From the NCBI GenBank assembly GCA_902801295.1, contig CADCHN010000021.1:13-64012 (forward strand): a stretch of DNA of 64,000 nt, given 5' to 3'. Of this stretch, positions 4,960-23,586 are shown piece by piece; position 1 is the first letter of the stretch, and each line of letters starts with the position of its first letter. This DNA comes from Oscillospiraceae bacterium (GTDB lineage: Bacteria > Bacillota > Clostridia > Oscillospirales > Oscillospiraceae). The notes beneath the pieces are model-generated. The model was not told the origin of the DNA and did not search any database. It saw nothing but the letters and a program-made list of their open reading frames with translations. The translations under genes and the position numbers were made by a program.

Positions 4960-4972
4960 GTGTTTTTCCTCC

Positions 4973-6355
4973 TTATATTTCTTCCTTCTGCAATACCAGT
5001 TTGATCGCCCAGGGCGGCACGTCGTAGTTGTTCTGCCCGTCGTCCACGAAGACGAAGGCGGTCTCATAGTCCGGCTTTTTCGCCGGGAAAGTGCCGAAGC
5101 CGTCGGTGAAGTAGATGAGGCCTTTGAGATTTTGAAACTCCTTTTTCTCCCGCAGCCAGTCCACATAGGAGAACACCGGGCGGAAGTCTGTGCCGCCGAG
5201 ACCGTGGATCGTCATGTTCTTGAGGTAGGCGTCAAATTCCTCTTGCGAGGTGATCTTCGCGTCCTCCTGGATGGTTGCATCGCACTGAATGATGTGTACG
5301 TTGATCTTTGAGAAAAAGCTCTCGGTGCTTTTGAGGATGTTGTAAGTCTTTTGCAGGAAGGTCTGCACCTGCTCGCCCGCCACGGAGCCGGAGGTGTCGA
5401 TGGCGATCACGAACTCCCGGATACGCTTGACCTCCTTGTATTCCAGCGGCTCAATGAGCGGCATTTTTCTGTAGAGCTTCAGTCCGTAGGTGTAGTAGAC
5501 GTAGTCGAATTCCTCGTCGTTGATCTTCATGGCCTCGCCGCGAACGGCGAACTTTTTGAGGAAGGCCGTGTAGTCGTACTTCTCCCGGTTGACCTCCCGC
5601 AGGTTCTGCATCAGATTCCCGGCCCGGTCGCCCTGTTGCTTGGAAAAGGTCTCCATGTCCATCTGCATCTGGCGGGAGATCTCCGACCAGCGCGCCTCGG
5701 CAGCCGAGACGCCGAAGGGCAGAGAAGTGCCTTCCCCCTCTCCGTCGCCATCGCCCTCGCCGGGCTCCACCGAAACACTGACGGAAACCGGTCTGCCCAG
5801 TGCCAGCGCCCGCTCCGCCTCGCTCATGTACCAGAGACGGTGATCGTCGTTGTAAAACGCGCCGCGCAGCTCCGCGATTTTCTCCGGCGGCAGCTGCTTG
5901 TCCAGATAATAGCGGTAAATCTTCTCGGCGGTGAGCTGCTTGATCTCCTTCTGGAGCTCGGAATACACGCTCTTTTGCAGCAGCTCGCGCCGGGTGGTGG
6001 CCGCCTTGAGGCCGAGCCCCGCGATCACGTACTCCGCCGCGATGTCGCAGGCCAAATCCCAGACGTGGTGATCCACCAGCGTGTGCACAAACATGTGCCG
6101 GAACACGCCGTGCAGCACCATGTGGAGATAGGCGCGCGTGACCGCCTCCCGCTCGTCCCTGTACAGGCGCAGGACGTGGGCGGGATCGTAGGCCAGCGCC
6201 TCGCCGTCCGTGGCGAGGGTCAGGCCCTCCACAGCCAGCGGCTCGAGCTGATTGAGCGCCGCGTCCAGAAAGCGCAGATTCACCAGCAGCGTGTTGCGGC
6301 TCAGCCGCAGCACGTCGAGCGCCAGTTTATTTCGTTTTGAAACTTGTTCGTCCAT
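4973..6355 (-). CDS. vWA-like domain protein with N-terminal putative metallopeptidase domain (DUF2201 family)
   Basis: Start at MDEQVSKRN (ATG 6355). N-terminal YLHMVLHGVFRHMF region typical of DUF2201_N. C-terminal vWA/MIDAS-like FVIAIDTSGSV. First gene of the operon that ends with the MoxR ATPase. Confidence 0.75.
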   Translation of the reverse strand: MDEQVSKRNKLALDVLRLSRNTLLVNLRFLDAALNQLEPLAVEGLTLATDGEALAYDPAHVLRLYRDEREAVTRAYLHMVLHGVFRHMFVHTLVDHHVWDLACDIAAEYVIAGLGLKAATTRRELLQKSVYSELQKEIKQLTAEKIYRYYLDKQLPPEKIAELRGAFYNDDHRLWYMSEAERALALGRPVSVSVSVEPGEGDGDGEGEGTSLPFGVSAAEARWSEISRQMQMDMETFSKQQGDRAGNLMQNLREVNREKYDYTAFLKKFAVRGEAMKINDEEFDYVYYTYGLKLYRKMPLIEPLEYKEVKRIREFVIAIDTSGSVAGEQVQTFLQKTYNILKSTESFFSKINVHIIQCDATIQEDAKITSQEEFDAYLKNMTIHGLGGTDFRPVFSYVDWLREKKEFQNLKGLIYFTDGFGTFPAKKPDYETAFVFVDDGQNNYDVPPWAIKLVLQKEEI

Positions 6356-6489
6356 GTCGTTTTTCTGTGTAGGGGCTGCCGCCCTCGGCAGCCCGCATGA
6401 TCCCTTATGTGCGCACCGCGGAGGCACGAGGGCATGCCGCCCTTGTATAATGCAGTGAGGCCGAAGAAGAGGTATACTAGAGTACACGC

Positions 6490-9738: not shown

Positions 9739-10965
9739 TTATACCAGCGAATCGTCCAGCAGGAAGTCCAGAATGCCGATGTTCAGCACGCCGTTGTCGT
9801 CGTACCAGCGCTTGCGGATGTCGTGGCGTACGATGATCTTCGGGAAAGAGTCGCCGGTCAGGGACAGGGGCTTAACTTCCGCCGCCGCTTTTTCGTCAGT
9901 ATCCAGCGCATAGGCGGACTGGATATAGGTTTTCTTGCCGCCCCGCGAGGCAACGAAGTCGATTTCCCGGGCCACCTGGGCGCTCTGGCCTTTCCTGTTC
10001 TTCTCCGCACCGTAGACGATGCCGATATCCACCTCGCAGCCGCGCACGCGCAGCTCGTTATACAGGATGTTCTCCATGATGTGGGTCATTTCCTGCTGCC
10101 GGAAGCCGGTGCGGGCGCGGCACTCCTCGAACAGATAAGCGTCCGACAGGTGGCCGATATAGGCCGTGACCGTGTTTGCGGCGACGGTGTTTTCCCCCGC
10201 GCGCTTCTGCCGGGAATTCAGGGCGTTGGCGATGTTGTTCGGGTTGGTCAGTGAGCCGACTGAGGAGCAGAGCAGATCCAGCGTTGCACCCAGCACGTCC
10301 TCGCGCCGGATCTTTTTGCGCTCCACGATGTCCTTCAGATAGACCTCGGAAAAAAGCGATTTTAGATAATTCATCTTCGCCGTGTCGTCCGGGCGGGAGA
10401 GGATCAGCGGCATACCGCCGAAAAAGGCATAGTCCTCGAAAGCCTCCGCCTTGTCTCCGCCCACCGCCGCGTAATACTCCGCAAAGCGCAGCGGGTGGAC
10501 ACGGATCTCATCGCTGCGGCCGCGAAACTCGGTGAGGATATCGCTGGAGAGCATGCGGGAATTGCTGCCGGTCACATAGATATCCAGATTGTCCAGCGAT
10601 TTCAGATCGTTGAGCGCGTCGTAAAAGGTGATCTTCTTCCCGTCCGGATTGTAGGGGTTCGGCACCTCGTCGGACATCTGGATCTCATCCACGAAGAGAT
10701 ACCAGCGATCCGGCTGCCCCTCGACCCGCTCCCGCACGGCCTTCGCCAGCTCCAGCGGGTTGCGGTAACGGATATCTTTCGCCAGATCCAGCTCATAGCT
10801 GAGGATGTGATCCTCGGCCACGCCTTGCTCCAGCAGCCAGCGCTTGAAGATCGTGCGCAGCAGATAGCTCTTGCCGCAGCGGCGGATGCCGGTGATGACC
10901 TTGACCTGCCCGTTCCACATATAGGAAATGATCCGATTCAGATAGATGTCGCGTTTGATATCCAT
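9739..10965 (-). CDS. AAA+ ATPase with C-terminal DUF4143 (AAA_14/DUF4143 family)
   Basis: Start at MDIKRDIYLNR (ATG 10965, AGGAGG RBS). Walker A ITGIRRCGKSYLL, Walker B LFVDEIQ. C-terminal part matches the restriction-endonuclease-like DUF4143 arrangement (EIDFV). Confidence 0.8.
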   Translation of the reverse strand: MDIKRDIYLNRIISYMWNGQVKVITGIRRCGKSYLLRTIFKRWLLEQGVAEDHILSYELDLAKDIRYRNPLELAKAVRERVEGQPDRWYLFVDEIQMSDEVPNPYNPDGKKITFYDALNDLKSLDNLDIYVTGSNSRMLSSDILTEFRGRSDEIRVHPLRFAEYYAAVGGDKAEAFEDYAFFGGMPLILSRPDDTAKMNYLKSLFSEVYLKDIVERKKIRREDVLGATLDLLCSSVGSLTNPNNIANALNSRQKRAGENTVAANTVTAYIGHLSDAYLFEECRARTGFRQQEMTHIMENILYNELRVRGCEVDIGIVYGAEKNRKGQSAQVAREIDFVASRGGKKTYIQSAYALDTDEKAAAEVKPLSLTGDSFPKIIVRHDIRKRWYDDNGVLNIGILDFLLDDSLV

Positions 10966-11177
10966 AGAAACCTCCTGTTGAGAACTTGTTAAGTCTATTA
11001 TACAACTTCTCAACAAGAATAATACACTTTACCAATGCTCTTGTCAATGCCGCTGTTGAGAAGTTACGAAAAATATTAGCCAACTTCTCAATAATGTTCC
11101 AGACGAACACGCCGGATTTTCCCGACAGTCGAGAAAATCCGGCGTGTTGTGATCTATCGAACTGTATTAGCCGGGGT

Positions 11178-12143
11178 TTACTGCTCTTCCAAAGCTTTTT
11201 TGTAATCCAGCAGTTCGGCGGTCAACTCAGCGTCATTATATGCTGATCCAAGATCGAAGAAGACGGAATAGGATTCTGCGCTGATACACTTATTAGTCAG
11301 CAGTTCACGAAGCTCCATTCTGTTTTCCGCGGAGAAGATCTCTGTGACGAATTCAATGGCCGCTTGATCCCCTGCGGCCGCTGCTTTCAAATAGCAATCC
11401 CAGGCTTTGTTCAGATCCTTCTCGACGCCTGCAAGTCCTGTCTCGTAAAGCATACCAAGATCCAAAAGTCGGGCCGAATCGTCCGTCCCTGTTATGGTCA
11501 GGGCAAGGAGCTCTGCCAAGGATTCTTTTTCAGATTCGATGCACTCCTGCAGGTATTCCTCATCCCCGACAATGTTTCCCTCATTATCTATTTGCATGGA
11601 TTCATAATCATGATCCTCATCTGAGAAATCATCCTCTTCCGGAATTATGTCTTCTTCCTCCGGGATTACATCGCTAAGATCAATCGTTTCTCCACATTCG
11701 GAGCAATCATAGGTTTCCCCAAATGCTTCCTCTTCGCCCACCAAAAGGCGGCAACCGCAATGAGGGCACTCAAAGGAATACATGATCTCATCCGCATAAA
11801 CCAATTCAGAACGGAAGCGCAAAGAACCGTTTTCAAACTCTATGTCATTGATCGACTCGTCCCCACCGCCGACCTCTTCCTTCATAAAGGTATAATATCT
11901 GAAATTCGCTTGGGGCAAAGCTCGGGCGAGTGAAATAAAGACCCCTTCGTCCACATCGTCCCATCCGTTTACATCCGTCAGCCAGCTAAAAACCAGAGCA
12001 TCCTCCGTATTTTCCTCAACGAAACCATTTCTATGCCTGAAATGGCCGTCATATCCGGTCAGCAAACTAAACAATCTATAGTGGATCTTTCCTTGCCTGC
12101 GTGTTCCGCTAAAGCCGCCTTCAAATCGGGAATCTACACTCAT
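11178..12143 (-). CDS. Hypothetical protein with an internal zinc ribbon, a very acidic linker and a C-terminal Sel1-like repeat
   Basis: 321 aa. CPHCGC..17..CSECG. DLSDVIPEEEDIIPEEDDFSDEDHDYE. LGMLYETGLAGVEKDLNKAWDCYLKAAAAGD. Confidence 0.55.
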   Translation of the reverse strand: MSVDSRFEGGFSGTRRQGKIHYRLFSLLTGYDGHFRHRNGFVEENTEDALVFSWLTDVNGWDDVDEGVFISLARALPQANFRYYTFMKEEVGGGDESINDIEFENGSLRFRSELVYADEIMYSFECPHCGCRLLVGEEEAFGETYDCSECGETIDLSDVIPEEEDIIPEEDDFSDEDHDYESMQIDNEGNIVGDEEYLQECIESEKESLAELLALTITGTDDSARLLDLGMLYETGLAGVEKDLNKAWDCYLKAAAAGDQAAIEFVTEIFSAENRMELRELLTNKCISAESYSVFFDLGSAYNDAELTAELLDYKKALEEQ

Positions 12144-12504: not shown

Positions 12505-14298
12505 TCAAAACAGTTTCCCGCTGCCGTAGATCTCACTCGGGATGTAATCCCAGCCAAGGCGTTTCTTCATCTCGGGCTTGGTGGCGTCGATGTGAATGCG
12601 CACCTCGATCACGGGATTCATGCGCTTGCTCTCCAGCCTAGAATAGGGAACGGAAGTGATGACCTCCGCCGCATAGGGGATGCCCTCGGCCAGCAGATCC
12701 TTCAGCCAACTGTCTGAAGAAACGTCACCCACGTCGCCGGCTGCCGTCACGAAGTCGATGCGGCTGCCGTCATCGCTCATCCGGAGCGTCACCTGATCGC
12801 CCACGTTCACGCGCTCGCTGCGCTCCTTGCGGTCGCCCTTTTTGGTGTTGGTGAGCTTGCATTCATAGTCCGGCATCGGGCCCATCTCGGCGCGCAGCTG
12901 CTCCAGCATCTCAACGAACTGGGGGTCTCCGCTCTCCGCCGCCTTGCTGAGCCACTTTTCGGCCTGCACCTCGTCCTTTTCCACACCGCTTCCCTGCATA
13001 TAGAGAAGCCCGATGATGCCCGCCGCCTCGGAGTCGGTTTCACTCAGTTCCTCCAGCAGGGACATGGCGCGCTCCCTGTCTACACCGTGATCATAAACCT
13101 TTTCGCCCTCAAAATAGCAGGCGAAAGCGTAGGCCTTGATGGCGCCCGGGTCTCCGTCCTCGATGCCCTCCAGCAGCTCGTCCATGTCGTAGTCCGGCTC
13201 TTTTACGGCAGGCTCCTGGCCAAAGGCCACGTTCACCAGATCGTTGGCCTGCAGATAGCTGAAGAAGCTCATGAGCTCAATATCCGGGGGCAGGGTGCCC
13301 TCGTCGATCAGCTGCTGCCGGTAGCGGTAGAAGTGGGCCATGCTGGACGCCCGCTCGTCGCCAAGCTCGGCCGCCCGGTCGTACCAGAAGATGGACTTCT
13401 CATAGTCAGAGGGGTCGAGGTTAATGTACTGCACCGCGAGCTGGGCAGCCACACGCACGTCGCCCGGCTCCTTTTCCTCCGCCTTGAGCAGATAGCCGAT
13501 GATCCGCTCAACCGGCATGATGGGCCGCGGCTGGTTCCCGCTCTCCAGCGAAATGCTGGCCGCGGCAGCGCAATGGCCCTGCTCGGCTGCCTTGATGGCC
13601 CATTCCAGGGCAGCGTCGTCATCCTGCGGCACGCCGGAGCCGTTCTTGAAGCAGACCGCATAGCAGTACTGGCACTCGGGGCTTCCGAGCTCTGCACCGG
13701 CCTTGTACAGCTCCGCCGCCTTGACGGGATCCTTTTCCACGCCCACGCCGTAATCGTAGCGGGTTCCAAGGCAGTGATAGCCCCGGGGGCAGCCCTGCTC
13801 CACTGAGCGCTGCGCCATCTCAAAGGACTCTTTCTTGTTTTCCTCGCTGGGGTAATTGGCCAGCAGCGTGGAGAATCGGGCCTGGGCCTCCGCGTCCCCC
13901 GCATAGGCTTTCTTTTCAATCTCCGGCGCATCCTTCAGAATCTTGAGCTGGCCGGGGGCGTCCGCGTCGCCGTTTTCAGATGCAAGCTCCATCCAGCGAA
14001 TGGCCTCGGTAAAGTCGCGCTTGATGCCCTCGCCGCGGGCGCACTGGATGCCCATATTGTACTGAGCCACCGGCTCGTCCAGATCGGCTGCCATGCAATA
14101 ATACTCCACGGCCTTCACCGGGTCGCGCTCCACACCGTCCCCGGTCAGGTAGGCAAAGCCCATCTGGAGCATGGCCTCCGGGTCGCCGCTCTCAGCGCCC
14201 ATGTGTTCCCAGAACAGGTCGCGCTTGAATTCGCCGGTCACAGGATCCTTGTAGCCTGCTTTGAAGCTGATGATTCCTCCGTTGTCATTGTTCGGCAT
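12505..14298 (-). CDS. Sel1-like repeat (SLR/TPR-family) protein with a distinct C-terminal about 120-aa domain (weakly HIRAN-like)
   Basis: 597 aa. Many units of the type GDPEAMLQMGFAYLTGDGVERDPVKAVEYY. The C-terminal NVGDQVTLRMSDDGSRIDFVTAAGDVGDVSSDSWLKDLLAEGIPYAAEV fits a HIRAN-type pattern only loosely. Confidence 0.75.
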   Translation of the reverse strand: MPNNDNGGIISFKAGYKDPVTGEFKRDLFWEHMGAESGDPEAMLQMGFAYLTGDGVERDPVKAVEYYCMAADLDEPVAQYNMGIQCARGEGIKRDFTEAIRWMELASENGDADAPGQLKILKDAPEIEKKAYAGDAEAQARFSTLLANYPSEENKKESFEMAQRSVEQGCPRGYHCLGTRYDYGVGVEKDPVKAAELYKAGAELGSPECQYCYAVCFKNGSGVPQDDDAALEWAIKAAEQGHCAAAASISLESGNQPRPIMPVERIIGYLLKAEEKEPGDVRVAAQLAVQYINLDPSDYEKSIFWYDRAAELGDERASSMAHFYRYRQQLIDEGTLPPDIELMSFFSYLQANDLVNVAFGQEPAVKEPDYDMDELLEGIEDGDPGAIKAYAFACYFEGEKVYDHGVDRERAMSLLEELSETDSEAAGIIGLLYMQGSGVEKDEVQAEKWLSKAAESGDPQFVEMLEQLRAEMGPMPDYECKLTNTKKGDRKERSERVNVGDQVTLRMSDDGSRIDFVTAAGDVGDVSSDSWLKDLLAEGIPYAAEVITSVPYSRLESKRMNPVIEVRIHIDATKPEMKKRLGWDYIPSEIYGSGKLF

Positions 14299-14328
14299 GA
14301 TGACGTCTCCCTTTCCTATTTTTTCGCG

Positions 14329-14390
14329 CAGAAGGGACGGTGGAAGCGTCTATGCAGTTCCATCGTCCCTTCTGTCAAATTATTCTATTT
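14329..14390 (-). promoter_or_regulatory. Conserved promoter/operator-like element, copy B (upstream of the Sel1-repeat gene)
   Basis: Perfect 11-bp inverted repeat cagaagggacg (14329-14339) / cgtcccttctg (14364-14374) with a 24-nt spacer. Minus-strand TTGACA at 14373-14378. 24-nt block identical to copy A. Confidence 0.6.
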
Positions 14391-14472
14391 TCATTATAAT
14401 GCGCTGCCATATGATGCGCAACTGTTTTTTCGCCTCCAGCTGCTGCAAAAGAACGACAGTAGGAGCTTTGCC

Positions 14473-16335
14473 TTATAGCTTCGCAAAGATGATCTCCAGA
14501 TCCTCCTCGCTGGTGGGCATGGTTTCGAGGATGTGGTTGTCGATGGCGTCCAGCATGATCTGCTCTTTTTCCTTCAGCCGGTCATAGATAGCCTGATCCA
14601 TGGACCAGGGGCCGTCGTTGGTCTGATAGCCGGTCTCCAGGTAGTAATACTGGGTGTACTGCCCCTCCGGCAGACCCAGGCGATGGATGCGGTCCTTGGA
14701 CTGGAGCAGATGCACCAGGTTGTAGCTGTACTCAAAATACACCGCGTCGTGGCAGACGCTGTGCAGGGACACCGACTCCGCCAGCGTGTGGGGATTCGTC
14801 AGAAGGACCTGGATCTCGCCGCTGCGAAAATCGGACAAAATCTGCTGGCGTTCCTCCAGCGGCACCTCGCCGTAGACGCAGCGGCAGCGGACGCCGCGCT
14901 TTTCCAGCTCTGCGGAAAGGCGGTGAATGGAGTCGATGAAGATGCACCAAAGGATAACTGGCTTGCCCTCCTGCGTCAGCTTCTCCGTCAGCTCCACGCA
15001 TTTGCGGAATTTGGACGGCACACCGCAGCCCTCGATCAGAGCGCGGACCTCGCCGCTGTAGTCGGCATAGTCGATCTCGTCAGCGTCCACGCTGTCGTCC
15101 AGCAAATATTCAAAGTTCTTGAGGCTCAAGTTCTCCAACAGGGCGCGGGGATTGGATTCCAGCTGCAGGATGCGGATCAGCAGCGCCAGCTTGTTCTTCT
15201 TATACTTCATGGACAGGATCTTCAAGATCCGGTTCTCGTCCGGCGTGGCCTCCGTCGGCACCATGGTGTCGGGATTGGCACGGGGGACGCCCAGCTGATC
15301 CTTGGTGGTGCGGCAGAAGAAGGGCTGCAGCTTGTCGTTGACCGCCTGCACGTCCTGGACCGCGGGCTTGCGGAGCTGAGCGGGCGTGAAGCCGAAGAAT
15401 TCCTCATACTCGTAGGGGAAGAGAATGTGCAGCAGGTTATACACGTCCGTATAGGCATTGGGCAGCGGCGTTCCGGTGAGGGCGATCACATAGGCCGCGT
15501 CCCTGGCCACGTTCAGGGCATGGGAGGCATACTCGCCGCCGATGCGCTTGACCTTGTGCACCTCGTCGAAGACCAGAAGCGTCCGATCCTCGGCCAGCGT
15601 CTTGAGAATGTCGTCCAGCTGCCCGACGGACTCATAATTGACCAGGATCAGGTTGCATCCGCCTGACTCGTATTCCAGCGCAGTGCGGCGATCCTTGGTA
15701 CCCTTGTAGGCCGGGTTGTGGATGTTCAGGACCCGCAGCGGCTCCTTCGCACCGAAGCAGGCCGTGAACTCGTCCATCCAGGAGCCGAAGGCGTTTTTCG
15801 GGCAAATGACCAGGATGCGTTTGACCGCGCCTTTGGCGGCAAGATAGGCATAGACGCCCAGCACCGAGGCCGTCTTGCCCGAGCCGGGAACGGAGAAGTT
15901 GGCGGACTTCTGCATGGCGCACATGAAGAAGCTGTCCCACATCTGCCGCTCCCGCAGGGGGCGCACCATTCTGCTGTCCACAACGGCTTTATATTTCTCA
16001 TAGCGCTCGGCCAGCTTGGGATCGTGGGCTTTCAGTTCCGCACCCAGGCGGGAGCGGATCTCGATGTGCATCTCTCTGGCGGCAATATAGTCCCGCAGGG
16101 CGTTGGACACCGTAAAGGCCGTGTCACGCTTTTCGCTTTCCCGGGTCACCAGATCGATGACTTTTTTGTAATCCAGGTAGGTTAGGGCGGGCTTGAAGCG
16201 CAGGAAGCCCGGCAGCGCCTCTTTCACATAGCGCCGCAGGAAGAGCTTATAGAAGCTCCCGGCCAGAAGGGCGTCCGTTTCCTCGGCAGGCAGACGCATC
16301 AGCAGCGCGCCGTCATAGTCCAGCAGCCACATCAC
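14473..16335 (-). CDS. SNF2-family helicase/translocase
   Basis: 620 aa. Walker A VPGSGKTA, DEVH box LLVFDEVHKV, LTGTPLPN, helicase-C motif VI QSKDRIHRLGL. The start overlaps the stop of the upstream gene (ATGA at 16332-16335). Confidence 0.85.
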   Translation of the reverse strand: MMWLLDYDGALLMRLPAEETDALLAGSFYKLFLRRYVKEALPGFLRFKPALTYLDYKKVIDLVTRESEKRDTAFTVSNALRDYIAAREMHIEIRSRLGAELKAHDPKLAERYEKYKAVVDSRMVRPLRERQMWDSFFMCAMQKSANFSVPGSGKTASVLGVYAYLAAKGAVKRILVICPKNAFGSWMDEFTACFGAKEPLRVLNIHNPAYKGTKDRRTALEYESGGCNLILVNYESVGQLDDILKTLAEDRTLLVFDEVHKVKRIGGEYASHALNVARDAAYVIALTGTPLPNAYTDVYNLLHILFPYEYEEFFGFTPAQLRKPAVQDVQAVNDKLQPFFCRTTKDQLGVPRANPDTMVPTEATPDENRILKILSMKYKKNKLALLIRILQLESNPRALLENLSLKNFEYLLDDSVDADEIDYADYSGEVRALIEGCGVPSKFRKCVELTEKLTQEGKPVILWCIFIDSIHRLSAELEKRGVRCRCVYGEVPLEERQQILSDFRSGEIQVLLTNPHTLAESVSLHSVCHDAVYFEYSYNLVHLLQSKDRIHRLGLPEGQYTQYYYLETGYQTNDGPWSMDQAIYDRLKEKEQIMLDAIDNHILETMPTSEEDLEIIFAKL

Positions 16336-17546
16336 AGATTCTCCCGCAGCTCGGCGATTACGGCCTCCAGCCGGTCAAGCTGCCGCTCGAAACGGCGCAG
16401 CTCGCTGTCGTTCATCTTCAGCAGAATATTGGCGTCGATATCGTCCAGGAAGCTGGTGGCCTTCTCGGCCAGCTGGATGGGGCGGTTGCGGGTCTCATTT
16501 TTCTTGACCTTGGTCGTGGCCTTCTCGAGGGAGCGATCCAGCGCCTCAGTGATCTCGGTATTGGTGCGGATCTCCTCCCGGATGCTCTCGCTGCTGACCT
16601 TGCCCACCGGCGGAAGGCTGTCCACGACCTGCATGGCCAGTTCCTGCTGCTCGGAGAGGAACTCCTCCTGATACTCGCTGCCTACGATGGCCTTGATGCT
16701 GCGGATATAGCGGGTCATGTCCCCGGAGGGCTTCATGAGAATGTTGGTAAAGACCGCGATCTTGATGTCCTCCGCCTCGTCCTCCGTGCGGCACTTTTTC
16801 ATCAGCCGTGCAAGCTCCTCCAGAGGGAAAACTACCTGCAGGTCGCGGGCAATATAAAACTGCTTCGGCGCGTTAATGAATTCCAGGAAGTCCACCATAA
16901 GCTGGGCTGTCTCCATACGGGATCTTACCTGAGCGGGCGTCTCGTTGGTGCTCTTGGCATATTCCTCAACGGTCAGCAGCCCGGTGTCGATGATATCGTT
17001 GTACACGCCGACCAGCCGATCCACGGGGTTGTAGTCCACGCGGGCCTCTTCTCCGTGCTGGATCGACAGCTCCAGCATTTTGATCTGCTTGGCGCTGTGC
17101 TCGATGCTGTGATCGAGGATGACGGTCTCAAAGTACCCAAAACGGGGATTCTTCTGCTGCAGGCGGCGCAGACAGGTGAAGCGGCGGTTGCCGTCGATGA
17201 TGCGCCCGTCGCACAGGATCACGCCCGGTTCCCGCTGATCCACCATCTCGATGTTGTTCTGGGTCTTCTTGATGGCGTCCGGATTGCTTTCGATGATGAA
17301 CTGTTCGATCAGGGCGTTGTAGGCCTCCCGATCGGCGGAGCTTGGCGCCTGGCCGCCGTGCTGGGACTTATACTGACTGATCCAGGTAGCGATGCGGTCG
17401 TTCTGATCGTTGTAAAAGAGCTGATCCAGCTTTACCTTATAGACAGGGTAGGCCTTGGTGATGCCGTCGATGGTCAGCTTGCGGCTGAGCGTGGTGGGTT
17501 CCACAAGGTGCAGGGCGAGGCCCTCGGTCAACAGATTCATGTTCAT
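16332..17546 (-). CDS. ParB/Srx-fold (ParB N-terminal-domain-like) protein
   Basis: 404 aa. VKLDQLFYNDQNDRI (ParB box-I-like) and ILCDGRIIDGNRRFTCLRRL (DGxxR box as in ParB/DndB/DUF262). Helical C-terminal half. 4-nt overlaps with both neighbours. Confidence 0.6.
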   Translation of the reverse strand: MNMNLLTEGLALHLVEPTTLSRKLTIDGITKAYPVYKVKLDQLFYNDQNDRIATWISQYKSQHGGQAPSSADREAYNALIEQFIIESNPDAIKKTQNNIEMVDQREPGVILCDGRIIDGNRRFTCLRRLQQKNPRFGYFETVILDHSIEHSAKQIKMLELSIQHGEEARVDYNPVDRLVGVYNDIIDTGLLTVEEYAKSTNETPAQVRSRMETAQLMVDFLEFINAPKQFYIARDLQVVFPLEELARLMKKCRTEDEAEDIKIAVFTNILMKPSGDMTRYIRSIKAIVGSEYQEEFLSEQQELAMQVVDSLPPVGKVSSESIREEIRTNTEITEALDRSLEKATTKVKKNETRNRPIQLAEKATSFLDDIDANILLKMNDSELRRFERQLDRLEAVIAELRENL

Positions 17547-20236
17547 ATCTCCTCAAAATATGTATCGTAATCCAGGTATACGGTTTCCATGATGCTATCG
17601 TAATAGAGGCTGCTCTCCTTAATAAGCCCGGTCAGCTTGTCTTTGTCCAGAACAATACCGTATTCTTGCTCCAAAAGATCTTTCAAATCGTAGATCTCGA
17701 TCTTTTCTCTATCCAACAGGAGTTCAGTCAGCAGGTCTTCCAGCACGATAGCACGCTGACCGCTGTAAAGGAGCCGTGTTCCGCCCATGCGGCGGGCAGA
17801 AAAGCGGGGATCTTCACAGATAAGAGAGGAATAAAACCAGTCGTCAAAGCCGAGATCGTCCAGATCATGGGCAAAGCCCTCTCTACGGATTGCATGAATG
17901 GTAAAGATCCGATCGGGTCCGACCCATTTCAGAACCCGGTCGCAGTAATCGGCGAGCTTCTCTTTCGTAACACCGCCCGCTTCCAGGCGCCGGATGTGGA
18001 TCAGTCGGTGTGGCTCAAATTCGATGATTACCTTTGCTTTGCGCAGGGCCGACAGTTCACTGAGATAGGCACTGAGGATGCTGATTCGCGGATCGATCTC
18101 GTGCAGATCGGTGATATCGGAGTCCGTCAACAGGTGATCAAAGTAATCCGAAGCGCTGGAATATCTTTTGCTGACGATATAACCCGAAAAGACATGATAG
18201 CCGAGCGATTTCAGCGAATATGGGTTTATATACACGCCCTCCGATTCCGGAAAGTGCGTGCTGTAAATCCGGTTCACTTCGGATATCGTGTAAAAATCCT
18301 TCGTCATCATCTGATGCATAGCAGAGAACTGTTCCGGCGGCAGAGCGGGCGAGTCAATGGTAAACAAACCGTTATGGTAGTACTCTTGAAGGCAGCTAAG
18401 GATATTGGCCCCGGCAGAATCCGCCCGCATTCCGTAGGCCTCTTCATATTTCTTTGAGAGCTCATGCCATCCGATCGGCGCATATTGCATCAGAAGCTCC
18501 AACGCCTGATCCGCATGGCTGCCGTTGCCGATGAAAAGAATCGGATTTCTGGAAAAGACGATTTCAGGTTTCCTTTCTTTCCAGATTTTTTTCAGCAGAT
18601 TGTGAAGCTCATACTCGTCCCGAATATCATATTCTCGCATCAGCTCCGGAAACTGGCGGAAGAACAGCAGGGTGGAGAGCGCTGCATCTGTGTACTGTTC
18701 CAAATTCAAGGTGCTGAACAACTCGTTGAAATCATGCTCTTGCAAGTTGTAATAACGCAGACGTTTTCCGGGGAGCCATAAAGCATAATCGCAGGCGTTC
18801 AGCTTGTTTTCATATGCCCTGCTTTCAATCTGAAGCGAAGGATCAGCAGACAAGCCAAGATCCTCCAAAACCATACCATACAGGCCGAGAAAATCAGTAT
18901 AGCTCGTCTGATCCCGACAATACTGACTGACAACATAGCGTACAAGATCAGGGCGTTTCTTCAGAATCCGAACACCGTCGATGACCACGAACTGTTTGTA
19001 CACCGCCCGCTCGATCTGCCGCCGCATCTTAACGGAGATGCTTTCGTCCTCCAGGGCCTTCTCAAGCGGTTGGGTATCGGTCTGTTTTCTGCCGGTTACG
19101 ATTTCCAAGAAATAAAAGACTTCATCCGGCTCATCAAAGGCAAGGCGAAAATCTTCTGGAGAGAAGTAGTACGTCTGAAAAACATACATATACCGATCTT
19201 CTCTTAGGTGAGGATGACCGGCCAACGCCTTCTTCTGAATTTGTCTGACGCGCTCTCTGGTAATATCATATACAGAGGCTGTTTCTTCGAGCGTTTTACC
19301 GCTCAGCCTGTAAATCAGAACTTCCTTTTGACGCTCATCCTTCAACCCTGCCGCATAGTCCACAGCGCTCAGATAACGCCGCAGTACCGTGGAACCATTT
19401 CTCTCAATTCTCTCTTCGTTTTCCAACTCGTCAATGAGAGATACAGTAGTTGCGCCGCTGGCAAGTCGCGTTTCCATATAATCCATGAGCTCTGCCATGG
19501 AGGCTTGATCCTCATGGGCTTCCAGATAATCACAGATCGCATTTTTCTGCGCGCTGCGCATCTCGCTTTCCTGGAAAAGGCAACTCAGAAGAGTTTCCCG
19601 ATCATAAGCGTTGCCGTCACGCAGCTGCTCCAGTTTCAAGGCCCAAGTGCCGGTCATTCCGCCAAAAACATTGGCCAGATCTTCCGCCAGGGCAGCGATT
19701 TCATTGTTGCCGGATGCGGACATTCCCGTGGCTTGATCAGAGAGCCGGAGAGACAGTTCTGACACCGCAGCGAGAATCTCCTCTGCGGTTTTGCGTCCCA
19801 TGTTCTTTACCGCGAGAAGGTCTTCCAAGCTTTTTCCGACAAGCTGTGAGGCGGTTGTCCAGCCTTCTCGGTTCAGGCAGTTTCTTGCCCGGACGGATAG
19901 GCCCATTTCTGAGATTGGGAGATCATAGAGCAACACGGGGGGATCCTCCGCAGTGGAGCCCGACACTAAGATATCATCTGCTTGAGAATCATCTTCAGGG
20001 AGATCTTCTTTATCGACAAGTCGAAATTGGGTTCCGCTATCGCCGGTCAGTTCCGCGCGAATCCGCATGATTTCCTCAAGCGAAGTTTTCCCAAGATTAC
20101 GAATATCAAGAAACTGATCTTCCGGATAATCCAGAAACTCACCGACTGTATGAAGCTTTACCCTGTTCATGCAATTGGTCACCCGGACGGACATTTGCAA
20201 TACTGAAATATCATCTTCTCGCGTTACATACTTCAC
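17543..20236 (-). CDS. Multidomain protein: two RNAP alpha-subunit C-terminal-domain-like HhH modules, a sigma-70 region-4-like HTH and about 560 aa of unrecognised sequence
   Basis: 897 aa with a GTG start. aa 10-63: LQMSVRVTNCMNRVKLHTVGEFL..IRNLGKTSLEEI. aa 105-162: MGLSVRARNCLNREGWTTASQLV..VKNMGRKTAEEI. aa 290-338: KEVLIYRLSGKTLEETASVYDITRERVRQIQKKAL. Markedly lower GC than the two downstream genes. Confidence 0.7.
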   Translation of the reverse strand: MKYVTREDDISVLQMSVRVTNCMNRVKLHTVGEFLDYPEDQFLDIRNLGKTSLEEIMRIRAELTGDSGTQFRLVDKEDLPEDDSQADDILVSGSTAEDPPVLLYDLPISEMGLSVRARNCLNREGWTTASQLVGKSLEDLLAVKNMGRKTAEEILAAVSELSLRLSDQATGMSASGNNEIAALAEDLANVFGGMTGTWALKLEQLRDGNAYDRETLLSCLFQESEMRSAQKNAICDYLEAHEDQASMAELMDYMETRLASGATTVSLIDELENEERIERNGSTVLRRYLSAVDYAAGLKDERQKEVLIYRLSGKTLEETASVYDITRERVRQIQKKALAGHPHLREDRYMYVFQTYYFSPEDFRLAFDEPDEVFYFLEIVTGRKQTDTQPLEKALEDESISVKMRRQIERAVYKQFVVIDGVRILKKRPDLVRYVVSQYCRDQTSYTDFLGLYGMVLEDLGLSADPSLQIESRAYENKLNACDYALWLPGKRLRYYNLQEHDFNELFSTLNLEQYTDAALSTLLFFRQFPELMREYDIRDEYELHNLLKKIWKERKPEIVFSRNPILFIGNGSHADQALELLMQYAPIGWHELSKKYEEAYGMRADSAGANILSCLQEYYHNGLFTIDSPALPPEQFSAMHQMMTKDFYTISEVNRIYSTHFPESEGVYINPYSLKSLGYHVFSGYIVSKRYSSASDYFDHLLTDSDITDLHEIDPRISILSAYLSELSALRKAKVIIEFEPHRLIHIRRLEAGGVTKEKLADYCDRVLKWVGPDRIFTIHAIRREGFAHDLDDLGFDDWFYSSLICEDPRFSARRMGGTRLLYSGQRAIVLEDLLTELLLDREKIEIYDLKDLLEQEYGIVLDKDKLTGLIKESSLYYDSIMETVYLDYDTYFEEI

Positions 20237-20269
20237 CGAACCATCCGCCTTCCGTCAGCATTTCAAATG

Positions 20270-20298
20270 ATTATACCATGCTGGGAAAGAAATGACAA
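20270..20298 (-). promoter_or_regulatory. Sigma-70-type promoter for the 897-aa/ParB-like/SNF2 operon
   Basis: Minus strand TTGTCA (20293-20298), 17 nt, TATAAT (20270-20275), about 35 nt upstream of the GTG start. Confidence 0.55.
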
Positions 20299-20362
20299 AA
20301 GATATTTTAGCCTATTTGGCGAGATGCTGAAAAACTTCAACAGCTCAAGCTCAGACTGCAAC

Positions 20363-20383
20363 TTTGAAACAAATAATTTCAAA
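20363..20383. promoter_or_regulatory. Palindrome TTTGAAA-n7-TTTCAAA (candidate repressor operator)
   Basis: Perfect 7-bp arms immediately upstream of the -35 of the S24-repressor promoter, in the divergent intergenic region. A second dyad, ctgtttc (20399-20405) / gaaacag (20428-20434), brackets the -10. Confidence 0.4.
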
Positions 20384-20389
20384 AAAGAA

Positions 20390-20418
20390 TTGACACGGGC
20401 TGTTTCAAGTGATATATT
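20390..20418 (+). promoter_or_regulatory. Sigma-70-type promoter for the LexA/CI-like repressor gene
   Basis: TTGACA (20390-20395), 17 nt, TATATT (20413-20418). Confidence 0.6.
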
Positions 20419-20458
20419 CTTTTCGCAGAAACAGTCTGTTCTGTTTTGGAGGGGCCTT

Positions 20459-21067
20459 ATGCGAAGGAAAGACGAATCGAAGAAACCGATCATCGCAGAT
20501 TTCATCAACGCGTTTTTTTATGAACACGATAAGGTTCCCAGCGTGAGAGAGATCGTTGAGGGAACCGGAATTCCGCTTTCGACCGTTCACCGTTATCTTG
20601 TGGATATGCAGGAAAAGGGCGAGTTGAGTTATAATGGCTATCGCAGCGCGCGTACAAAAGAAATGAGTGAGGTTTCCCCCATTCATGGCATCGCGGTGCT
20701 CGGTACTGTTGCTTGCGGTCCCGGCCAGGAGGAAGAGCAGCGTTTTGTCGAGACGATCCGTATGCCCGAGACACTGGTCGAGAAGGGAGACTATTTTGCC
20801 CTGATTGCCAAAGGAGAAAGCATGATCGGTGCGGGCATCTTCCCCGGAGATTATGTTTTTGTGAAAAGGCAGGAAACCGCAAACGAGGGAGATCTTGTCA
20901 TCGCACTCTTTGACGGAAAGAACAATCTGAAAAAGCTCGGCTTCGATCAGAAGAACAAAAAGTTCATTCTGCATTCCTGCAATCCTGATGCGGAAAAATA
21001 TCCTGACATTATTGTGGACGAGTTGCAGATCCAGGGAATTGTGAAAGGCTCGTATCATAAGCACTGA
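20459..21067 (+). CDS. LexA/CI-like S24-peptidase transcriptional repressor
   Basis: Start at MRRKDESKK (ATG 20459, GGAGG RBS). N-terminal wHTH (VPSVREIVEGTGIPLSTVHRYL), then an S24 fold with the Ser motif AKGESMIGAGI and Lys in NNLKKL. Confidence 0.8.
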   Translation: MRRKDESKKPIIADFINAFFYEHDKVPSVREIVEGTGIPLSTVHRYLVDMQEKGELSYNGYRSARTKEMSEVSPIHGIAVLGTVACGPGQEEEQRFVETIRMPETLVEKGDYFALIAKGESMIGAGIFPGDYVFVKRQETANEGDLVIALFDGKNNLKKLGFDQKNKKFILHSCNPDAEKYPDIIVDELQIQGIVKGSYHKH

Positions 21068-21089: not shown

Positions 21090-21362
21090 TTGAAAAACGT
21101 CACCCCAGAAGATCGTCTTCGACTTCCTTCTTTCGATTGCCCGAATCCAAACTGCGCGGCAAAGAATATCGCGTTCGCAGTCAACCGGGAAGCGAAGAAT
21201 GAATCGGAACTGATCCCTCTGGAATACATTTCAGAAAACACTCCCGCAGATTTCGCAGTCATCTGTCCGAAGTGCAAGAGCAAATATGTTTTGTACCGGC
21301 ATCGGGAAACGCCGATCATTCCATTTTACAATCGTCCTTTATACGGTAGAGTTGCCACTTAA
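21090..21362 (+). CDS. Small hypothetical zinc-ribbon protein (TTG start)
   Basis: CPNPNC...CPKCKSKY. 22 nt after the repressor stop. No homology recognised. Confidence 0.35.
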   Translation: MKNVTPEDRLRLPSFDCPNPNCAAKNIAFAVNREAKNESELIPLEYISENTPADFAVICPKCKSKYVLYRHRETPIIPFYNRPLYGRVAT

Positions 21363-21750
21363 ACAAACTGAATACATTGGCATAGTGAGCCGTCCTCCCA
21401 CCCGTGAATGTGGAAGCAAAGGGCAGGTATCAAGTCCAAAAAAGCATCACGCAGCAGCGGAAAATGCGCGTGATCTTTGGCTTGATGCCTGCCTTCTTTT
21501 TTATCTTTTTTGCGCCGGCCTGATTTTCTTCGACAGCATTTTTCATCAGTATTCTGTTAGATTAGGAAGAAGAAACGTGAAAAAATGGCGCGGGGGAAGC
21601 GGTTTCTTACTTAGAGCAAGTATCGACCCGTGGCCCAAAATTCGAGGTAGCCGAATTTTTGCCGCGGTCAGAACTTGTTGGGGAGTGCCTTCCCCAAACC
21701 CAGCAGAACGAAAGAAACGATCATTTTTTCGCACAGGAGGTGCATCAAAA

Positions 21751-23586
21751 ATGCGAGGACCGTACGACACGCCCAAGCGCAGTCATGTAATCAAAACGCG
21801 CCTGGACGATGACGAGTACGAATTCTTTTTACGCAAGTGCCAGGTCTACGGGATGAATCAATCGGAAATGATCCGCACATCTTTGGAGAAGCTTCAGATT
21901 TATCCCGTGATCAAATTCTCGTCGGTGAACAAGGAGCTTTTATCAAAAGTCGATGAACTCATCACCGAGGGAAAACGCATCGGGAACAATCTCAATCAGA
22001 TTGCCCGTGCGCTCAATTCCGGATATCCCGATCAATCGCTATCATCAGATATCCGCCGCGCCCTCGGCGATCTGGCGGAATGGAAATATGAAATCCTGCA
22101 GGAGGTGGGAAGCGCCATTGGCAACGATCAAACATTTGAGCTCGAAAAACTCGGACCTCGGGGCCGCCGAGCGTTACTTGATCTTTCACTCGCCTACAAC
22201 AAAAATCTCTCCCGCGGCGATGTGAAGACCCATCATTACATCATCAGTTTTGATCCGAGAGACGCGGAGGAAAACGGATTGACGATGGATCGGGCACAAG
22301 CGTTAGGCCTCGAGTTTTGCAAAAAGCATTTCCCCGGCCATCAGGCTTTGGTCTGCACGCACCCGGACGGGCACAACAAAAGCGGCATCATTCATGTGCA
22401 CATTGTCATCAACAGTCTGCGTATCGAGCGCGTTCCCATGATGCCGTACATGGACAAAGCCTGCGATACACTTCCCGGCATGAAGCACCGATGCACCGCA
22501 GCCGCGCTCCGTTATCTCCGTGCGGAAGTGATGGAGATGTGCCAGCGTGAGGGGCTGTATCAGATCGATTTGCTGAACGGCAGTAAGAACCGAATCACAG
22601 AATGTGAGTACTGGGCGCAGAAGCAGGGACAGAAAAAGCTCGACGAAGAAAACGCCGAGCGGATTGCGAACGGAGAAGAACCGAAGCAAACGAAGTTTGA
22701 AACGGATAAGCAAATCCTGCGCCAGCAGATCCGAGCAGCGCTGAAGAAATCCAAAACGCTGGACGAATTCTTTGATGTGCTTTTGGAGGATTACGGTGTT
22801 GCGGTGAAAGAAAGCCGCGGACGATTCAGCTATCTGACGCCGGATCGCACGAAGCCGATCACATCCCGCAAGCTGGGCGACGATTTTTCCAAAGAAGCGA
22901 TCCTCGCCGCACTGGAGAATCATGCAAAGCAGATCATTCCTTCCGTCCATCAGAGGCCGGACATTTCTGTCACGCCCGCGGCAAAACCCGAGATTGAAAG
23001 ACTGATCGATCTGGAAGCGAAACGCGCCGAAGGAAAGGGAGAAGGCTACATCCATTGGGGCAAGACCTTCAATCTGAAAACCATGGCCAAGACGCTGATC
23101 TATTTGCAGGAAAACGGTCTGACCGATCTGGACGCGCTCGACGCCGCACTTGCAGAAGTGCATGAAAAAGTAAAGACCAGCCGTGCCGATATAAAAGCGA
23201 TCGAGGCGAAGCTGAACAAGAAGAAAGATTTACAGCGGCAGGTTTTGAACGCCCACTCCGGAAAGAATTTGCACGCGGAGTACCTAAAGCTGCCGAAGAA
23301 AAAGCAGGAGAAATTTTACGAAGAAAACCGCCCGGCGCTCATGCTCTACGACGCGGCCATGCGGTATTTCAAAGAAAACGGGATCAAAACGATTCCTACT
23401 GTCAAGCGAATCCAGGACGAAATTGAAGATCTGACTTCGCAGAAAAACGCTGGTTACACAGAATACCGCGAGAGTCAGAAACGCGAAAAGGAGCTGCAGA
23501 CCGTCAAGGCCAATATTGAAACAATACTTCGACAGCAGGAGCCGGAGATCGGGCAGGAGCGCAAAACGCGCGAGCAGGAACTTTAG
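21751..23586 (+). CDS. MobC-like mobilisation protein fused in frame to an N-terminally deleted relaxase (MobA/VirD2-type Relaxase domain); probably a rearranged, non-functional relaxase
   Basis: ATG 21751 with an AGGAGG RBS; the track ORF from 21286 is an upstream read-through. MobC part: RSHVIKTRLDDDEYEFF..IGNNLNQIARALN. Relaxase part: DVKTHHYIISFDPRD, HPDGHNKSGIIHVHIVINS (HxH metal motif). The relaxase N-terminus lies in another frame (next entry). Confidence 0.7.
   Translation: MRGPYDTPKRSHVIKTRLDDDEYEFFLRKCQVYGMNQSEMIRTSLEKLQIYPVIKFSSVNKELLSKVDELITEGKRIGNNLNQIARALNSGYPDQSLSSDIRRALGDLAEWKYEILQEVGSAIGNDQTFELEKLGPRGRRALLDLSLAYNKNLSRGDVKTHHYIISFDPRDAEENGLTMDRAQALGLEFCKKHFPGHQALVCTHPDGHNKSGIIHVHIVINSLRIERVPMMPYMDKACDTLPGMKHRCTAAALRYLRAEVMEMCQREGLYQIDLLNGSKNRITECEYWAQKQGQKKLDEENAERIANGEEPKQTKFETDKQILRQQIRAALKKSKTLDEFFDVLLEDYGVAVKESRGRFSYLTPDRTKPITSRKLGDDFSKEAILAALENHAKQIIPSVHQRPDISVTPAAKPEIERLIDLEAKRAEGKGEGYIHWGKTFNLKTMAKTLIYLQENGLTDLDALDAALAEVHEKVKTSRADIKAIEAKLNKKKDLQRQVLNAHSGKNLHAEYLKLPKKKQEKFYEENRPALMLYDAAMRYFKENGIKTIPTVKRIQDEIEDLTSQKNAGYTEYRESQKREKELQTVKANIETILRQQEPEIGQERKTREQEL
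22118..22225 (+). pseudogene. Orphan relaxase N-terminal remnant in the +1 frame
   Basis: TTG (22118) 9 nt after AGGAGG gives (M)ATIKHLSSKNSDLGAAERYLIFH, then nonsense and a stop at 22225. This looks like the normal start of this relaxase family and overlaps the end of the MobC homology. Confidence 0.55.

Follow-up and report, generated by a model that had tools for sequence, protein, structure and literature searches.

A probable AbiR-family anti-phage operon with RNA polymerase-like DNA-binding modules on a mobilisable element of a gut Oscillospiraceae bacterium

Identification of an AbiR-like operon

The 64,000-nucleotide stretch of DNA analysed in this study (the window; positions 13 to 64,012 of contig CADCHN010000021.1, assembly GCA_902801295.1, from an Oscillospiraceae bacterium) harbours on its minus strand an operon of three genes, g1, g2 and g3, at positions 14473-20236 of the window. 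The operon is probably an anti-phage system of the AbiR family, presumably also directed against mobile elements, and is borne on a mobilisable element. It represents a conserved and co-transcribed module that unites a protein with multiple helix-turn-helix (HTH) domains, a protein of the ParB fold whose arginine motif is invariant, and an SNF2 motor. An earlier interpretation of the letters alone (the sequence-only reading) had held that no named system has this composition, which was not sustained, as AbiR is described as the same three-gene set (PMC13064643); a match to a named system had been set down beforehand as refuting that reading. The new features relative to the known AbiR are an AbiRc without a PLD domain, an AbiRa bearing C-terminal domains of the RNA polymerase (RNAP) alpha subunit (alpha-CTDs), and the absence of a linked methylase.

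To our knowledge, AbiR was named about 25 years ago, has no established mechanism and is viewed as a rarity of lactococci; the primary papers are reportedly those of Twomey (2000) and Yang (2006). AbiR is among the systems tracked by DefenseFinder. A 2026 review of lactococcal Abi systems describes it as a three-gene abortive-infection system of the Lactococcus lactis plasmid pKR223, in which AbiRi/AbiRa resembles a sigma-70 factor, AbiRii/AbiRb is ParB-like and was superposed on PDB 5K5D, and AbiRiii/AbiRc joins an N-terminal ATP-dependent restriction endonuclease domain (SauUSI, 7CLG) to a C-terminal Snf2 helicase; a ternary complex of the AbiR proteins was predicted (PMC13064643). AbiR lowers phage DNA replication and requires the LlaKR2I methylase, being toxic without it (PMC13064643). 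LlaKR2I is a GATC endonuclease of the Sau3AI/MutH family (PMC4471560), and AbiR was associated with restriction-modification (R-M) systems by Makarova et al.

The window operon is similar to AbiR in being a three-gene operon on mobile DNA with the order sigma70-like, ParB-like, Snf2, which was also the order in 34 loci. Relatives of the window triad carry a PLD-Snf2 fusion and adjoin Sau3AI/LlaKR2I-type R-M genes. We infer homology to AbiR from a four-fold coincidence: the three proteins agree in domain architecture, their genes follow one order, and relatives show both the PLD fusion and the link to LlaKR2I-type R-M genes.

Organisation of the operon

The positions of the three genes and of their promoter are as follows.

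g1, 17543-20236, minus strand: 897 amino acids (aa), GTG start; putative AbiRa-like multi-domain DNA-binding/sensor protein
g2, 16332-17546, minus strand: 404 aa (probably 402 aa from 17540); AbiRb-like ParB-fold protein
g3, 14473-16335, minus strand: 620 aa; AbiRc-like SNF2 ATPase, short form without a PLD nuclease domain
Operon promoter, 20298-20270, minus strand: sigma-70-type, TTGTCA-17-TATAAT, TG-extended, 11/12 matches

The three open reading frames (ORFs) and the single promoter proposed in the sequence-only reading were all recovered. The promoter is the top promoter-like site within 14000-20700 and the strongest consensus match of the region, and is located about 34 nt upstream of the GTG of g1. 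ATGA overlaps had been claimed for both junctions; the one between g1 and g2 is present (17546-17543), whereas the g2/g3 junction reads GTGATG, which gives a GTGA overlap with a GTG start at 16335 or a 1-nt overlap with the stop codon with an ATG start at 16332. As the g2 homologues are all 402 aa long and start with MNLL, and as the spacing of the GAGGAG Shine-Dalgarno sequence suits the second ATG of g2, at 17540, this ATG is probably the true start (402 aa) and the real g1/g2 junction is probably TGA-AC-ATG, with 2 nt between stop and start. The junctions in the 34 homologous triad loci are mostly overlaps of 4-8 nt or gaps of 1-3 nt. The tight coupling of g1, g2 and g3 is genuine whichever start codons apply and, with its recurrence across homologous loci, is in agreement with the proposal of one operon.

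Domain structure of g1

Four parts were distinguished in g1.

Alpha-CTD copy 1 (aa ~5-66), 20039-20224, minus strand: Pfam PF03118; Foldseek to solved alpha-CTDs
Alpha-CTD copy 2 (aa ~103-169), 19730-19930, minus strand: best Pfam stretch aa 105-159
Winged helix plus sigma-70 region 4 HTH (aa ~244-340), 19217-19507, minus strand: Sigma70_r4
C-terminal array of about seven winged-helix units (aa ~345-897), 17546-19204, minus strand: AlphaFold2 (AF2) and Foldseek

The two tandem alpha-CTD modules and the sigma-70 region 4 HTH, both of which had been recognised from the letters, were matched by Pfam RNA_pol_A_CTD in two stretches (E=6.5e-33) and by Sigma70_r4 at aa 300-338 (E=1.1e-9), respectively. 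In Foldseek searches the alpha-CTDs aligned with solved alpha-CTDs at TM scores of 0.8-0.9, with a root-mean-square deviation of about 1 A and identity of up to 43%, and the matches of g1 included 3N97 (alpha-CTD plus sigma region 4 on UP/-35 DNA). Models of rpoA matched g1 twice, through their last ~65 positions only (92 bits versus cut-offs of 228-523), and the sigma70-ECF and RpoS models of NCBIfam gave weak matches to regions 3-4 only, far under their cut-offs. Neither a sigma region 2 nor an alpha N-terminal domain was found in g1 by Pfam and NCBIfam scans, and g1 is therefore neither a sigma factor nor an RNAP alpha subunit.

The AF2 model of g1 (42-sequence alignment, pLDDT 83.6) presents in order alpha-CTD 1, a disordered linker (aa 80-102, pLDDT <50), alpha-CTD 2, a helical segment, a winged helix, the sigma-4 HTH and the C-terminal array. 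The sequence-only reading had recognised nothing in the C-terminal ~560 aa, but the model and Foldseek resolved about seven winged helices there. In this region (pLDDT mostly 80-94) a helix-helix-helix-strand-strand unit is repeated about seven times and the Foldseek matches are tandem winged-helix proteins (UFL1/DDRGK1, SelB WH1-4, Ctf18-Dcc1 and Stn1), which together point to a winged-helix array.

Residue conservation was assessed in 42 aligned homologues of g1, with the Escherichia coli RpoA alpha-CTD and sigma-70 region 4.2 as references. In E. coli, R265, N268, C269, G296 and S299 of the alpha subunit contact UP-element DNA, and the recognition helix of sigma region 4 contacts the -35 element. 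The equivalents in both alpha-CTDs of g1 are R in 40-41/42, N in 38-40/42, C in 25-31/42, G in 39-42/42 and S/T in 39/42 homologues; for copy 1 the range over these five positions is 31-42/42. At the position of K298, 36/42 homologues have Lys in copy 2 and 26/42 in copy 1; copy 1 of the window protein has Thr. In the -35 recognition helix, TRERVRQI, the residues R327, E328, R331 and Q332 are invariant, and T326 and R329 are kept in 41/42.

The N-terminal part of g1 is variable. The Enterococcus faecalis g1 aligns with the window g1 only from residue ~305 and has no alpha-CTD match, and four long homologues (P0319, P0367, P0374 and P0392; 1380-1520 aa) have N-terminal BspA-type leucine-rich repeats (LRRs; LRR_5) and two or three alpha-CTDs. 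This alignment and the variable N-termini of the long relatives indicate that the constant core of g1 is the sigma-4 HTH plus the winged-helix array; the alpha-CTDs (0-3 copies) and LRRs are variable front ends. The winged-helix array, as modelled, is the family-defining part of the protein.

The ParB-like protein g2

The ParB/Srx-like character previously ascribed to g2 was supported by its fold and by strongly conserved motifs, but not by profile hidden Markov models (HMMs). No match to g2 was obtained in Pfam, NCBIfam, PADLOC or PHROG, and sequence searches of the PDB, whether started from g2 by itself or from a profile of 20 sequences, yielded no significant match and no ParB structure. 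With the AF2 model of g2 (pLDDT 86.6), the top 22 Foldseek matches in the PDB were all ParB (bound to cytidine tri- or diphosphate, CTP/CDP), Noc, Spo0J or pNOB8 ParB, at a probability of ~1.0 and E down to 1.3e-4, and 5K5D was in the list. The predicted fold is a ParB N-terminal domain followed by an HTH domain. At least 3,170 clusters of g2 homologues were found. Among 60 unique homologues, DGNRR was present in 59 and DGNRR[FY]T in 55, YNDQNDR in 49 and LEL.[IL]QHG in 55; by the order of secondary structure in the model, DGNRR, YNDQNDR and LEL.[IL]QHG would be at the positions of ParB boxes II, I and III. DGNRR is located at the strand-helix junction where ParB has GERR, a placement that follows secondary-structure order and not residue-level superposition. 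Homologues of g2 from Enterococcus and Lactococcus have sub-threshold matches to the ddrB-ParB family PF18763 over the DGNRR region.

With chromosomal ParB/Noc CTP-dependent clamps, g2 shares the predicted N-terminal domain fold and HTH, with DGNRR as the presumed counterpart of GERR and YNDQNDR that of the N..R box. It differs from them in the lack of a Pfam ParBc match, in the replacement of the Glu of GERR by Asn, in additional helices inserted at aa ~60-100 and in a C-terminus that forms a long coil; neither a ParA partner nor repeats of the parS type were identified.

A ParB fold might instead indicate a module for maintenance, partition or exclusion of a plasmid or an integrative and conjugative element, in which the ParB-like protein would mark DNA and the SNF2 protein remodel it in the service of the element. 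This would be concordant with the RefSeq label of some homologues ('ParB/RepB/Spo0J family partition protein') and with the fact that plasmids and an integrative mobilisable element carry the genes. It is nevertheless very unlikely, as neither the ParA partner nor centromere-like repeats were seen, many copies are chromosomal in unrelated contexts, and the plasmid copies are in cargo flanked by insertion sequences (IS), with toxin or R-M genes, and not in rep/par regions. The prototype AbiR, moreover, has a demonstrated anti-phage phenotype.

The SNF2 ATPase g3

As had been read from the letters, g3 is a complete SNF2 ATPase, with Pfam matches above the cut-offs to SNF2-rel_dom (1.8e-17) and Helicase_C (1.6e-11), plus ResIII. 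Motifs I, II and VI (GSGKT, DEVH and QSKDRIHRLG) are intact and are kept in 34/35 homologues. The window g3 is 55% identical to residues 235-853 of an 855-aa PLD-SNF2 form from Cohnella. In about half of the triads g3 is ~856 aa long, and its extra N-terminus is a PLD/HKD domain (PLDc_2); among 15 unique long g3 sequences, at least 90% retain FHDK...GSNNET. The PLD domain of two long g3 proteins (Cohnella and Lactiplantibacillus plantarum) matches the PLD domain of PbeA, with E of ~1e-67 to 1e-70. To judge by these motifs, both the SNF2 motor of g3 and the PLD nuclease of its relatives are catalytically intact.

Distribution and co-occurrence of the genes

When the winged-helix region of g1 was used alone as the query, at least 1,375 representative clusters at 50% identity were retrieved, and the C-terminal representatives numbered 1,158 at E<=1e-10 and 722 at E<=1e-30. 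A survey that took a single genome for each species detected g1 relatives in 163 species. Most carriers belong to the Bacillota (Oscillospiraceae, Lachnospiraceae, Paenibacillus, Cohnella, Neobacillus, Paraclostridium and Parvimonas), and those outside the Bacillota include Leptotrichia, Desulfovibrionaceae, Spirochaetia and Muribaculaceae. For 80 species-level g1 loci that were retrieved, the classes were as follows.

Full triad g1-g2-g3, same order: 34/80 loci, g1 identity 28-77%
Triad interrupted by the contig end: 2/80 loci
Degenerate triad: 2/80 loci
g1 plus a longer g2 (540-600 aa), in either order, without SNF2: 19/80 loci
g1 alone, with complete flanks: 13/80 loci
Undetermined class: 9/80 loci
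No intact g1 ORF called: 1/80 loci

The co-occurrence of the three genes across genomes, which the sequence-only reading had put forward as a test, was thus observed, and g1 was linked to a ParB-like gene in 57/80 loci. The neighbours of the stand-alone g1 genes were ABC transporters, PGK, BlaR1 and similar housekeeping genes. Hidden divergent copies of g2 or g3 in the g1-only loci were considered and rejected, as the family HMMs found none.

Stand-alone copies beside housekeeping genes, together with the invariant -35-contact residues in region 4 and the UP-element-contact residues in the alpha-CTDs, might be taken to indicate that g1 serves the element as a transcription factor or an alternative regulator of sigma-like type, with g2 and g3 as accessory chromatin-type factors. 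This is extremely unlikely. Without sigma region 2 (core binding and -10 recognition) and the alpha N-terminal domain, g1 cannot be a sigma factor or an RNAP subunit, and both its linkage to the ParB-like gene and the nuclease-helicase fusions of its relatives argue against such a role.

The two-gene variant of g1 and the long g2 (loci L006-L008, L053, L058, L060, L065-L068, L070-L072, L075-L077, L079, L082 and L086-L089) is found directly after the PglZ-BrxL genes of BREX in L007 and L008. The extra C-terminal ~170 aa of the long g2 are conserved in this variant and gave no match in Pfam, NCBIfam or PDB sequences. Three or more architectures occur in the family, one with SNF2, one with PLD-SNF2 and one with an extended ParB protein and no helicase. 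A more distant g1 homologue (27% identity, 1180 aa) is located beside a Pbe-type CxC-ABC/HKD-helicase locus (L010, 95-10327), in the order g1 homologue, a 423-aa unknown gene, a small protein, an HKD-SF2 helicase (dnd_restrict_1, E=9e-98), a DndD-like ABC ATPase and a 147-aa gene. Such an arrangement suggests that proteins of the g1 type are able to join other restriction modules. A ThsA_Macro neighbour is a third association with defence genes, and the settings beside BREX and the Pbe-like locus speak for a defence role. In Flavonifractor, Pseudoflavonifractor and Faecalibacterium, a second and shorter g1 paralogue (~660 aa) is present between g1 and g2 (L033, 10694-12685; L034, 10709-12691; L038, 7219-9198); the copy in L033 has no Pfam match.

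On plasmids, homologues of g2 and of g3 were found on 66 records each, with the same genus breakdown, 52 of them from Enterococcus. Plasmids of E. faecalis carry the full triad in IS-flanked cargo beside MazF and Fic genes, and the Enterococcus triads are annotated as 'sigma factor-like HTH DNA-binding protein / hypothetical / DEAD/DEAH box helicase'. Enterococcal plasmids of clinical relevance may therefore often carry a defence module that has gone without annotation. If the AbiR assignment holds, the signature component of AbiR is a large family of gut Clostridia, Bacilli, Fusobacteriota, other phyla and dozens of E. faecalis plasmids, and the AbiR-type family would be far larger than appreciated.

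Methylase and restriction-modification linkage

A pooled Pfam scan of 111 ORFs from the flanks of the 34 triad loci, followed by phmmer, gave one match to a C5 methylase, and Dcm plus MutH-type pairs were resolved beside two loci. In Paraclostridium ghonii (L031) the order is Dcm, an ORF, a MutH/Sau3AI-like gene and g1-g2-g3(PLD), and in Pseudobutyrivibrio (L080) it is g1-g2-g3(PLD), a MutH/Sau3AI-like gene and Dcm. A conserved adjacent methyltransferase was on this count rejected as a component of the system, as was a conserved adjacent S24 repressor, none being recurrent in the same flanks. For the family, linkage to a methylase would be the exception and not the rule.

Two plasmids carry g2 and g3 without g1. 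On a plasmid of L. plantarum (L095, 5733-12983) the order is Dcm, an IS remnant, g2, g3(PLD), a MutH/Sau3AI endonuclease and Vsr, and on the L. lactis plasmid pIBB109_AgSa_3 (L094, 4002-12016) g2-g3 directly follows a type III Mod/Res pair. These pairs beside R-M genes might indicate that the ParB-SNF2 pair is itself an R-M-associated module.

Comparison with other systems and assignment to AbiR

Searches of the triad with PADLOC, NCBIfam and PHROGs gave no system-level match for g1 or g2, only domain-level partial matches to PglW (alpha-CTD), MzaA (HTH) and ZorD, DpdE, DrmD and PbeA (helicase). No full-length component of BREX, DISARM, Dpd, Zorya, Pbe or MZA was matched among g1-g3, and no PglZ/PglX, DrmA/B, DpdA, ZorA/B or CxC-ABC genes were found inside the operon. 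In PglW of type 2 BREX, several winged helices come after a helical domain resembling the alpha-CTD, and this segment acts in DNA binding/sensing (PMC12839542); the PADLOC model of PglW matched aa 105-242 of g1 (E=1.2e-10). Unlike g1, PglW starts with enzymes of the kinase and nuclease types and ends in an inactive STAND region, and it has neither a sigma region 4 nor ParB/SNF2 partners; the whole-protein score was 35.7 bits versus a cut-off of 990. MzaA of the MZA system (Gao_Mza) has a C-terminal HTH of the sigma-70 region 4 type, and NCBIfam NF041931 matched aa 291-339 of g1 (E=1.6e-6), but the likeness is confined to the HTH (27 versus 800 bits) and the partners in MZA are of the MutL/Z1226 type, not ParB/SNF2. 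Further likenesses are the PLD domain that two long g3 relatives have in common with PbeA, the HKD-SF2 helicase of CxC-ABC (Pbe) systems, the pairing of SNF2 and PLD in DISARM (DrmC and DrmD) and the pairing of ParB-like and SNF2 proteins in Dpd (DpdB and DpdE). The helicase of g3 is however of the SNF2 type and not the SF2 type of Pbe, genes for a CxC-ABC ATPase/DndE, DrmA/B/M or TGT/DpdA are absent, and all whole-protein scores were far under the cut-offs.

Several points weigh against the assignment to AbiR. AbiR was compared by its description and not by alignment, so that homology of the three proteins to AbiRa, AbiRb and AbiRc of pKR223, although very probable, is drawn from architecture, gene order and R-M linkage. 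The window g3 lacks the N-terminal nuclease domain ascribed to AbiRc, with no PLD match in Pfam. Whereas AbiR needs the LlaKR2I methylase, no DNA methyltransferase was present among the ORFs scanned in window 1-32.6 kb, and a methylase was adjacent in only 2/34 triad loci. The two alpha-CTDs of the window g1 have no counterpart in the description of AbiRa, and the E. faecalis homologues lack them. No significant Pfam ParB match was obtained for g2, and those of its homologues were sub-threshold only (E 0.002-0.016). The 13/80 loci with g1 alone might also indicate a stand-alone role for this gene. Finally, the docking on promoter-like DNA, the clamp loading and the roadblock considered below are steps that we infer. 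A tblastn search of PLSDB with g1 and g2 found no lactococcal triad and no lactococcal plasmid with a g1 homologue, and none of the homologues retrieved with the Enterococcus g1 bore the name AbiRa.

The operon could alternatively be an undescribed conflict system, similar to AbiR in outline but evolutionarily unrelated to it. The absence of a system-level match for g1 or g2 in PADLOC-DB 2.0.0, NCBIfam and PHROGs, the comparison with AbiR by description and not by sequence, and the lack of a PLD domain and a methylase partner in the window copy would be in keeping with this. The silence of PADLOC is however uninformative: the copy used evidently has no AbiR models, since the Lactobacillales homologues match none either, and PADLOC was for this reason rejected as a test for AbiR. 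The published AbiR is matched in its three-part architecture and its gene order, in the PLD-SNF2 form that homologues have and in the LlaKR2I/Sau3AI-type R-M genes beside them, and an unrelated origin is unlikely.

Proposed mechanism

In an AbiR-type system, g1 would be the targeting or sensing subunit, with its alpha-CTDs and sigma-4 HTH docking on promoter-like (UP/-35) or AT-rich DNA, as might be expected from the retention of the UP-element and -35 contact residues. The conservation of these residues fits, at the level of sequence, the promoter-directed tracking machine that the sequence-only reading had proposed as an alternative to a decoy or sensor. An infection cue may also be read by g1 through the winged-helix array, and in relatives through the LRR extensions, as variable front ends. 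The ParB-like g2, a putative DNA clamp gated by nucleoside triphosphate or a nickase, would be recruited by g1, as would the g3 SNF2 translocase, which would move along the DNA and block phage DNA replication as in the lactococcal AbiR. In relatives with an N-terminal PLD (HKD) domain in g3 the endpoint is probably DNA cleavage; for the PLD-less g3 of the window it might be translocation with a roadblock, nicking of the ParB type, or the action of an unlinked nuclease. The self-DNA of the prototype AbiR is protected by the LlaKR2I 5-methylcytosine (GATC) methylase, and self-protection by methylation is documented only there.

A rather improbable variant of this mechanism is that g1 is a decoy of the promoter-recognition surfaces of RNAP, with the alpha-CTDs and sigma-4 HTH as bait for phage factors that hijack or modify RNAP. 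The factors caught could be ADP-ribosyltransferases of the alpha-CTD, AsiA-like anti-sigma factors or activators that bind the alpha-CTD, with LRR sensors added in relatives, and once such a factor had been caught, the ParB-like clamp and the SNF2 motor would be freed to load onto DNA. If this were true, AbiR-type systems would guard against transcription take-over, and the fact that most copies need no adjacent methylase would be accounted for. For the AbiR assignment itself, the 'sigma-like' subunit would be a combination of 0-3 alpha-CTDs, a sigma region 4 and a winged-helix array in which the promoter-contact residues are kept. The preserved promoter-recognition modules of RNAP provide a testable handle on how defence may read promoters or transcription take-over.

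Genomic context of the operon

An integrative mobilisable element carries the operon as cargo, and its host is a gut Clostridium of the Oscillospiraceae type. To its right are an S24 repressor, MobC plus a relaxase and a large serine recombinase, and to its left are Sel1-repeat proteins, an AAA_14/DUF4143 ATPase, a WYL-WCX regulator and IS110, while the G+C content falls from ~0.62 to 0.46-0.59 across the region. A WYL regulator, an S24 repressor, an IS and a mobilisable element had been named in the sequence-only reading, as had a context of defence or mobile-element conflict; the WYL, IS110, S24, MobC/relaxase and serine recombinase genes were all confirmed, and the neighbours in the window are consistent with that context. 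Other features of the window are listed below.

S24/LexA-like repressor promoter, 20390-20418, plus strand: TTGACA-17-TATATT, back-to-back with the operon promoter, ~90 bp apart
597-aa Sel1-repeat protein, 12505-14298, minus strand: non-Sel1 C-terminal ~110 aa, directly downstream of g3
Sel1 plus zinc-ribbon protein, 11178-12143, minus strand
AAA_14/DUF4143 ATPase, 9739-11016, minus strand
MoxR-type AAA+ ATPase, 344-1852, minus strand: left of IS110
SIR2_2/AbiH-like protein, 1861-2763, minus strand: left of IS110
LRR_5 plus BRCT protein, 2782-5166, minus strand: left of IS110
DUF2201 VWA-like metallopeptidase, 4976-6487, minus strand: left of IS110
766-aa ORF, MobC/NikA-like plus relaxase, 21286-23586, plus strand: matches from aa ~163 only
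2,379-aa surface-type protein (CHB_HEX_C, Flg_new, DUF5689), 38205-45344, minus strand

The divergent S24/LexA-like repressor adjoins g1, with the promoter region at 20237-20470, and its 266-aa ORF probably starts downstream of 20418. As the repressor is not conserved beside the triad elsewhere, it is probably the regulator of the element itself. Operator-like repeats in the intergenic region between g1 and the S24 gene were only short and at chance level. A mirror ORF of 2,386 aa on the plus strand opposite the surface-type gene has no family match and is probably spurious. As the MobC/relaxase matches of the 766-aa ORF start at aa ~163, its first ~160 codons appear over-extended and a later start is probable. 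AAA_14 ATPases also flank 3/34 other triad loci. LRR_5 genes flank two other triad loci, and the LRR_5-BRCT gene of the window is a separate one. The MoxR/VWA pair and the SIR2 gene to the left of IS110 may be separate defence systems.

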